Part shown: positions 18,778 through 19,486 of the stretch, piece after piece
How the letters are laid out: every line of letters begins with the position of its first letter
Position numbering within the stretch: the first letter of the stretch is position 1
From: a virus
Lineage: Duplodnaviria; Heunggongvirae; Uroviricota; Caudoviricetes
IMG/VR virus record: IMGVR_UViG_2563366988_000001
DNA: 26,266 bases
Strand: one strand, 5' to 3'
Notes under the pieces: generated by a model
What the model was told of the DNA's origin: nothing
Database searches by the model: none
Seen by the model: only the letters and a program-made list of their open reading frames with translations
Translations under genes and position numbers: made by a program

Positions 18778-18826
18778 CCGCAGCACGTCTTAAGCAAGAA
18801 CGTGCTGCGGTTGGATGCTATTTTTT
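18778..18826. terminator. Hairpin (CCGCAGCACGT-loop-ACGTGCTGCGG) plus T-run between convergent tfa remnant and methyltransferase gene; candidate bidirectional terminator
   Basis: 11-bp stem at 18778-18788 / 18800-18810, then TATTTTTT at 18819-18826; a second copy at 26089-26123 carries compensatory changes. Confidence 0.5.
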
Positions 18827-19486
18827 CCCTGAAGCGGAAAACATTACTACAGTACCTTGAACCTTGGTTTTAACATTCTCGAAATGCTCTGAGAGTATAT
18901 GTGTTAAGCCTTCTTCGGAATCTTTTGTGTTTGAAAAGATGCCTTTCTGATTGTAAATGCGCATCAGTTTTTGACCGAAGCTATTGTGCACAACTCCGTC
19001 ACCAAGAATTGTGGCTCCGTATAGAGTTCCATCGTCAGTTAAGGCCTGCGCCGCATTGCGTATTACACAGCTTTTTGTAGATATATTTCCAGGCAGGCAG
19101 TGAAGAAGGTAAAACATGGAAATGGAATCAAATTGACCATGTAACGCTGCGGGATAAGGTTCAAAAACATCATGGCTAATTTTATGTTTAATTTTTGATT
19201 CCCCAGCCCTTGTAGATGCCGCGTTCAGGCTAGCTTCGTTCAAATCCATTAAAGATATCAGACTACTCTCAGGTACGTGAGTAAGGTAAAACCCAGTTCC
19301 AACACCAATATCCAGATGGTTGTTACCTAAATGTTCCAGAAAGTGTGGAAGAAGGTGTTCCTTTGTAGGACATCCCCATGCAAGCCGATTTGATACTCCC
19401 AAAACCCACCAGTCATAAAGCTTTAGGGTAAGTGGTGTGTAAATTTTAGCCCCATCATCTGTGTTTTTTTTCATTAATTTCACCAT
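18818..19486 (-). CDS. Class I SAM-dependent methyltransferase (small-molecule/RNA type, not an obvious DNA methyltransferase); positional analog of K-12 DLP12 ybcY
   Basis: 222 aa; motif I LDIGVGTGFY and motif post-II DDGTLY; no DPPY/NPPY motif; low-GC gene; K-12 has a methyltransferase-like gene between tfaD and tfaX. Confidence 0.75.
   Translation of the reverse strand: MVKLMKKNTDDGAKIYTPLTLKLYDWWVLGVSNRLAWGCPTKEHLLPHFLEHLGNNHLDIGVGTGFYLTHVPESSLISLMDLNEASLNAASTRAGESKIKHKISHDVFEPYPAALHGQFDSISMFYLLHCLPGNISTKSCVIRNAAQALTDDGTLYGATILGDGVVHNSFGQKLMRIYNQKGIFSNTKDSEEGLTHILSEHFENVKTKVQGTVVMFSASGKK

Follow-up and report, generated by a model that had tools for sequence, protein, structure and literature searches.

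Escherichia coli K-12 carries ybcY (b0562), a pseudogene lying between tfaD and tfaX in the cryptic prophage DLP12, and Salmonella carries STM1638, a chromosomal gene that has only been called a putative S-adenosylmethionine (SAM)-dependent methyltransferase and that lies beside the small RNA (sRNA) gene rydC and cybB (PMC11340327). These are the closest described relatives of a methyltransferase (MT) gene on the minus strand of the IMG/VR virus record IMGVR_UViG_2563366988_000001, a caudoviral sequence of 26,266 nucleotides (nt), analysed over its whole length and here called the window, which corresponds to the DLP12 locus of K-12 and forms the right arm of an E. coli lambda-like prophage. 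A preliminary description of this DNA, made from the letters alone, had likened the placement of the gene to that of ybcY; the window MT is the same gene, and as ybcY, WP_000239881.1 or phrog_2132 it is already known and uncharacterised, being annotated as a methyltransferase in thousands of genomes and forming a PHROG family. The searchable literature yielded no functional data on ybcY, STM1638, the phage names or the moron cluster. We consider it probable that the MT gene is functional, that lambda-like prophages carry it as stand-alone cargo (a moron), and that it encodes a SAM-dependent methyltransferase of the small-molecule type and has its own promoter and no partner.

Reading frame, fold and family of the methyltransferase

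The open reading frame (ORF) list of the window holds an intact, ATG-initiated ORF of 222 amino acids at 18818-19486 on the minus strand, with a GC content of 0.41, lower than the 0.53-0.64 of the tail genes on its left, and with a motif I, DIGVGTG, located at residues 59-65 by motif search. ORF list, GC content and Pfam matches thus bear out the preliminary description in placing here a low-GC class I methyltransferase with a GxGxG motif I, and its convergence with a tfa remnant also stands, the remnant lying on the plus strand and being annotated by RefSeq in near-identical genomes. The length of 222 amino acids given there is that of the ORF, but the coding sequence (CDS) most likely begins at Met5 and would comprise 218 amino acids, because Met5 is the start in all 25 of the 25 aligned homologues, the phrog_2132 profile also begins there, and the Met5 ATG (19474) alone is preceded, at a distance of 5 nt, by a Shine-Dalgarno (SD)-like GGTGA, the Met1 ATG (19486) having none. 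The -10 hexamer of the published promoter, discussed below, ends at 19487 and so abuts the Met1 ATG.

Profile matches, motif I, the acid of strand beta-2 and a structural model all agree that the predicted protein is a class I Rossmann-fold SAM-dependent methyltransferase, as had been proposed. Methyltransf_12 of Pfam matches at 37.6 bits (cut-off 30; E = 3.8e-9), Methyltransf_23, Methyltransf_25 and Methyltransf_11 also exceed their cut-offs, and phrog_2132, a family of unknown function, matches with E = 7.9e-157 across profile positions 1-218 of 218 and window residues 5-222. The AlphaFold (AF2) model, built from 26 homologues with a predicted local distance difference test score (pLDDT) of 89.6 and a predicted template modelling score (pTM) of 0.86, has the seven-strand class I fold with an N-terminal helical lid, the C-terminal beta-hairpin of strands 6 and 7 being present. 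Residues D59, G61, G63, T64 and G65 of motif I are invariant in the 26 homologues, and D81, the acidic residue at the end of strand 76-81 (beta-2) that in this class binds the ribose hydroxyls, is invariant both in the homologue alignment and in an alignment of 80 distant members.

That the enzyme might instead be a nucleic-acid or protein methyltransferase used by the phage, for anti-restriction or acting on tRNA, rRNA or a host or phage protein, is unlikely. The motif (D/N/S)PP(Y/F/W) is absent even in loosened form, which covers both NPPY and the DPPY type whose lack had already been remarked on; motif search finds no PCQ or PCK, the only ENV, at residue 203, lying in the C-terminal hairpin and not at the position of motif VI; and N6_Mtase, N6_N4_Mtase and MethyltransfD12 give no Pfam match to the window MT at E <= 0.1. 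On these negative motif and Pfam searches a DNA methylase was ruled out. Further, the model of 218 amino acids comprises the catalytic core and the N-terminal helical lid with no nucleic-acid-binding extension, the gene is one of the cargo genes, on the strand opposite to the late operon, and not one of the early or replication genes, and its orthologues in Enterobacter, Salmonella, Yersinia and Erwinia are ordinary chromosomal genes. The fold neighbours are small-molecule and lipid methyltransferases, in keeping with the earlier view that a small-molecule, RNA or protein methyltransferase is more likely than a DNA methylase.

The top Foldseek match is PmtA of Rubellimicrobium (8ys9; E = 1.9e-11, TM-score 0.61-0.65), extending over nearly the whole protein. 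Together with weak NCBIfam matches to Legionella PmtA and RquA, and with a conserved amphipathic aromatic N-terminal helix (YDWWVL...W.C) that could bind membranes, it would be compatible with a PmtA-like phospholipid N-methyltransferase that converts phosphatidylethanolamine (PE) to methylated PE or phosphatidylcholine in lysogens, an identity we regard as highly improbable, the window MT reaching neither the curated NCBIfam cut-off for PmtA nor a specific structural match. Other families fare similarly: NCBIfam scores of the window MT are at most 17.4 bits against cut-offs of 162-390 for BioC, UbiE/MenG, UbiG, RquA, CpaM and NodS, the further weak likenesses being to BioC, UbiE/MenG, CpaM and NodS, and the 80 distant relatives reach no functional family cut-off either, their best weak match being to BioC (E = 1.3e-10). 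A named functional family was ruled out on this basis. The best sequence match in the Protein Data Bank (PDB) is a juvenile hormone (JH)-acid carboxyl methyltransferase (JHAMT), and in PDB sequence and profile searches similarity is limited to the SAM-binding core. Methyltransferases of solved structure (PmtA 8ys9, JHAMT 7ec0, NodS 3ofj, BelI/CysG 9fce/9g0k, DhpI 3ou2 and MM_2633 3dtn) are 10-21% identical to the window MT and have no family-specific catalytic residues in common with it. The substrate is not deducible from sequence or fold.

The wider family, of moderate size, comprises 197 clusters at 50% identity with E < 1e-30 and reaches fungi, an Aspergillus protein being 45% identical. 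Among distant relatives one fusion to a P450 and one to an RCC1 repeat were seen; the former fits small-molecule chemistry, and with no consistent theme the fusions were dropped as a functional clue. PADLOC returned only mad2, at 14.3 bits and E = 0.0033, which amounts to generic similarity of the methyltransferase fold, and a component of a defence system was ruled out on the strength of this 14-bit match.

Placement, relatives and selection

Of 5,426 complete E. coli genomes, 3,832 (71%) carry the MT ORF, always at an identity of at least 95%, with a median of one and a maximum of four copies per genome. Temperate coliphage isolates (ev243, 2G7b and the PhiR series) encode a protein that is 99-100% identical, in the same place, the order around the attachment site attP in these phages being int-attP-ompT-hydrolase-tfa'-MT. 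Sampled E. coli copies always lie antisense directly after the tail-fibre/tfa module and are followed by a tfa remnant, the tfaX-like remnant adjoining the gene in every context. What lies beyond that remnant varies and may be a hydrolase-ompT pair, an IS66 insertion sequence (IS) and then the hydrolase, a diguanylate cyclase gene beside ybhB, or potB directly, so that ompT is a frequent and not an obligate neighbour. Constant placement with varying neighbours indicates that the unit occurs in different prophages at different chromosomal sites, beyond the inherited DLP12 remnant, and the conserved position in a tail-fibre/att hotspot that had been claimed by comparison with ybcY holds across these integration sites. 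In O157:H7 and in strain CEC13002 four genes, for a Mn-catalase, two ferritin-like proteins and a general stress protein, are inserted between tfa and MT, which shows that the tfa-MT site accumulates cargo.

The gene also appears to have signals of its own. Shimada et al. (2014) listed TTGATT-17-TATAAC for K-12 ybcY among the 'constitutive' promoters of the RpoD holoenzyme and noted H-NS at the spacer (PMC3946193); the entry stems from in vitro genomic SELEX (systematic evolution of ligands by exponential enrichment) with hexamers assigned by sequence and is not a mapped start (PMC3946193). The same hexamers and spacing occur on the MT strand from 19515 to 19487, the sole exact match in the window and one found in none of 100 shuffles. 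The candidate promoter at 19506-19534 of the preliminary description overlaps these hexamers but does not coincide with them; it is the position of TTGTAA-17-TTTAAT (19534 to 19506), which with TTAACC-16-CATAAT (19542 to 19515) makes up the weaker overlapping candidates of a consensus scan. On the other side of the gene, past the MT stop codon and before the point where the convergent tail-fibre/tfa' unit ends, lies a hairpin of -23.9 kcal/mol (z = -5.6; none of 200 shuffles as stable), which is part of the repeat common to the second MT copy described below. It has no U-run on the MT strand and is thus not a canonical intrinsic terminator for MT, and is likely to be a shared 3' end or terminator element. 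The promoter match, the 3' hairpin, the low GC content and the strand opposite to the late operon together give the gene the make-up of a moron. Upstream of it RefSeq annotates an 81-nt 'DinI family protein, missing C-terminus' (19561-19641, minus strand), which runs into the beginning of the opposite-strand tfaX-like remnant; the MT orthologue of Citrobacter freundii has an intact dinI immediately downstream. Control by the SOS response, as the DinI fragment might suggest, was ruled out, no LexA box being found within 500 bp upstream of MT.

Outside E. coli, chromosomal orthologues in Enterobacter, Salmonella (STM1638), Yersinia and Erwinia are 56-68% identical to the window MT and match it over the full length, with YDWWVL, DxGxGTG, DLN, HD, LLHCLPG and YNxKGIFSN invariant; about 60 residues are invariant across the Enterobacterales homologues. 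C39, H129, C130, N179, K181 and D189 are likewise invariant and might form a metal or substrate site. In contrast to the coliphage gene they lie outside prophages at fixed chromosomal positions, and their neighbours differ in every genus. Other copies lie in mobile contexts, related MT genes being IS-flanked in Aeromonas and Klebsiella, one Salmonella copy having a plasmid-like context and the Citrobacter orthologues lying among the prophage morons dinI, sodC and sopA. No partner gene is common to the eleven neighbourhoods compared, which represent seven genera, and the label 'orphan' given in the preliminary description is apt in this sense. Esterase and lipase neighbours and an Rce1-like neighbour (two cases) were considered as conserved partners and judged too heterogeneous. 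As for the individual neighbourhoods, STM1638 lies directly upstream of rydC, whose sRNA activates cyclopropane fatty acid synthase, and downstream of a gene for an ArnT-like PMT_2 membrane glycosyltransferase; the first gene of the island to which STM1638 belongs is sseJ, which encodes an effector. A gene or gene fragment for an Rce1-like (CPBP) protease adjoins MT in Yersinia and in one Salmonella contig, which may be chance, and the Enterobacter, Erwinia and Yersinia orthologues lie near esterase, lipase or alpha/beta-hydrolase genes of different families.

These hydrolases bear on the idea that MT works as a pair with the neighbouring alpha/beta-hydrolase, and perhaps with OmpT, one enzyme forming and the other cleaving a methyl ester, as in BioC/BioH or in JH-acid methyltransferase and JH esterase. 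An esterase- or lipase-type hydrolase is near MT in the E. coli phage, in Enterobacter, in Erwinia (COesterase, divergent) and in Yersinia (a GDSL autotransporter), JH-acid carboxyl methyltransferase is the best PDB sequence match, and BioC is the NCBIfam model that distant members most often match weakly. The pairing is nonetheless very unlikely. The neighbours belong to different families, the E. coli one being TAP-like and of peptidase type, and several intact E. coli copies lack such a neighbour, so that the hydrolases are a weak lead only: the second MT copy has ompT directly downstream and no hydrolase, other intact copies have diguanylate cyclase or potB genes there, and K-12 has appY. 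In the window itself the hydrolase has been destroyed by an IS while MT is intact. In JHAMT a Trp residue positions the carboxylate; it aligns with Cys in the window MT.

K-12 ybcY is 98.8% identical to the window gene at the nucleotide level and shares with it the tfa-MT-tfaX layout, the promoter and the chromosomal locus next to ompT. It differs in having lost the Met5 ATG, whereas the window copy is intact, and the window copy sits in a complete-looking lambdoid tail region with a second copy from a neighbouring prophage remnant. The K-12 allele (NC_000913.3 582152-582806) is dead through a deletion of 2 nt at the head of an A-run, which takes the TG of the Met5 start codon (window 19472-19474); its promoter is intact and the rest of its ORF nearly unchanged. 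K-12 is thus a natural null for MT, and a search for the substrate cannot be made in this standard laboratory strain. Because the allele is dead, knockout and array data on ybcY in K-12 say nothing of its function, and this helps explain why that function was never studied. Decay in close relatives, which together with a lack of transcription the preliminary description had regarded as speaking against a function, is therefore real in K-12, and strain S3 carries an internal stop codon, but nine of the ten non-K-12 copies inspected by annotation are intact.

Two dead alleles and the H-NS listed at the promoter are what might be expected of a functionless passenger, kept by linkage to the tail-fibre recombination module and to the old DLP12 remnant, and the high identity of all E. 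coli copies is as expected of recent common descent. This is, however, an unlikely account of the gene. The ratio of non-synonymous to synonymous substitution rates (dN/dS) is 0.21 against the prophage-remnant copy of Citrobacter freundii (dS 0.21) and 0.17 against the plasmid-like Salmonella copy (dS 0.40), values near 0.2 that span mobile contexts and genera. The 34 intact E. coli alleles differ by 23 synonymous and 16 non-synonymous changes, a corresponding polymorphism ratio (pN/pS) of about 0.2. MT is moreover retained in plaque-forming phages with compact genomes, and the residues invariant across Enterobacterales, as well as the intact non-K-12 copies, point the same way. Comparison of these alleles indicates purifying selection, which supports the selected accessory function that had been suggested earlier.

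The second copy and the surrounding prophage

The preliminary description had also taken the presence of two MT copies as a sign of selection. The second copy (MT2) is real, its 3' end recurring at 26130-26266, but it does not have this meaning. A repeat search matches 18647-18946 to 25959-26258 (96% identity), and the repeat extends to the end of the window. NZ_OZ547033 agrees with 24601-26266 at every position (100% identity), and in that genome MT2 is intact, coding for 218 amino acids (WP_000742375) and differing from the first copy by 5 of 657 nt and 2 amino acids. From 23600 to 25684 the window is colinear with phage ev243 at 98%, through ompT and attP and into the C-terminal part of the integrase, while the bacterial-flank homology seen in single lysogens ends at about 25077, the position of the att core. 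By its sequence this point has the form of the P-O-P' junction expected where two prophages share one att site in tandem. A deletion that starts inside int and stops inside tfa has reduced the second of them to int'-tfa'-MT2-ompT2; RefSeq labels the tfaD-like remnant of this prophage 'tail fiber assembly protein, missing N-terminus', and ARAGORN finds no tRNA in the window that might mark the junction. There are two copies of MT because two prophages integrated in tandem, and the duplication is a by-product of double lysogeny that says nothing on selection for two copies.

The remainder of the window reads, in order, as tape measure, J, lom, stf, a tail fibre with S74 chaperone, the cargo region and the second, degraded prophage (Table 1). 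In near-identical genomes RefSeq gives the order tfa remnant, MT (WP_000239881.1, opposite strand), tfa remnant, alpha/beta-hydrolase and ompT, followed either by envY-ybcH-nfrA or by a second int'-tfa'-MT-ompT set. The tfa remnant at the 3' side of MT is a 72% direct repeat of 19689-19800. The hydrolase gene, unbroken in related genomes and in phage ev243 (494 amino acids), is split in the window by an IS21-family element of 1,954 bp (20699-22652, by BLAST) with a 5-bp target duplication (20694-20698 and 22653-22657); in size and ORF lengths the element presumably resembles IS100.

Table 1. Features of the window around the two methyltransferase copies, in order of position
Feature	Position	Strand	Evidence
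tfa remnant, C-terminal part, convergent with MT	18644-18763	+	RefSeq pseudogene in 99.8% identical loci
Strong hairpin between MT stop and end of tail-fibre/tfa' unit	18778-18810		RNA fold
MT CDS, YbcY family / phrog_2132 (most likely extent)	18818-19474	-	ORF, homologue starts, PHROG and Pfam matches, AF2 model
Four additional codons (MVKL) of the RefSeq-style 222-residue annotation, probably untranslated	19475-19486	-	SD absent, promoter -10 abuts
Promoter region (predicted)	19487-19542	-	Sequence match to published hexamers; consensus scan
Second tfa remnant (tfaX-like), promoter side of MT	19636-19841	+	RefSeq; equivalent of K-12 tfaX
Alpha/beta-hydrolase cargo gene (Abhydrolase_1 and TAP-like C-terminus), IS-split	20025-23468	-	Pfam on both pieces
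istA	20785-21807		IS21-family element
istB	21804-22586		IS21-family element
ompT of first prophage, terminal cargo gene	23655-24608	-	Pfam Omptin, 1.2e-130
Truncated integrase of second, deleted prophage	25083-25820	-	Pfam Phage_integrase, 3.5e-43
tfaD-like remnant and hairpin copy before MT2, fused to truncated integrase	25754-26129	+	91% to K-12 tfaD region; repeat with 18647-18817
MT2 3' end, cut by window end	26130-26266	-	Repeat and NZ_OZ547033 identity

Over the 3' end of MT, many genomes carry in RefSeq a hypothetical protein of 45 amino acids (WP_001309429.1; 18736-18873, plus strand) that extends from the tfa remnant across the hairpin to overlap MT in antisense, and that is probably a spurious call. 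In the tail region, a tail-fibre gene for 793 amino acids (14576-16957) contains two tandem repeats of 189 nt (63 codons) at 15077-15454, 82% identical to each other. A Peptidase_S74 domain, an intramolecular chaperone, forms the end of the distal tail fibre (17248-18285), which is flanked by two small conserved ORFs, phrog_1361 at 16957-17238 and phrog_1443 at 18316-18624. A fibre that ends in this way would not need Tfa, which fits an upstream tfa that has shrunk to a remnant of 120 nt.

A possible role as prophage cargo

Read as a stand-alone moron, MT would be a cytoplasmic enzyme captured from the enterobacterial gene pool. A sigma-70 promoter of its own, set in AT-rich DNA that H-NS binds, would drive its transcription antisense to the late and tail operon; the prophage could then express it whether or not lytic growth takes place, and it would work without the phage or a neighbouring partner. 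The E. coli allele moves as a single gene, its tfa-derived flanks supplying homology for recombination with tail-fibre modules. Its chemistry would most likely be the O-, N- or C-methylation of a small metabolite, a xenobiotic or a lipid, and not of DNA, giving the lysogen a metabolic or protective trait; the gene itself would be dispensable in the laboratory. A bolder version, which we think improbable, is that MT, present in some 70% of E. coli strains, changes the chemistry of the lysogen by methylating a membrane lipid or a small molecule derived from the host or a competitor, and that this has been missed owing to the K-12 allele and silencing by H-NS; N-methylation of PE, or detoxification of an antimicrobial as a methyl ester or N-methyl derivative, would be examples.

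The closest parallels for the stand-alone reading are the lambdoid morons at prophage ends, such as lom, bor, sodC and ompT. Like them, MT appears as an independent unit, with a promoter of its own and a hairpin on its 3' side, has a lower GC content than the flanking phage genes, and lies at the tail-fibre/att end on the strand opposite to the late operon. The morons already known from this region, however, encode envelope or secreted proteins with defined phenotypes, whereas MT would be a cytoplasmic enzyme; if it does modify a lipid, a metabolite or an antimicrobial, an enzymatic function in lysogenic conversion would be added to the envelope-protein morons Lom, Bor, OmpT and SodC.
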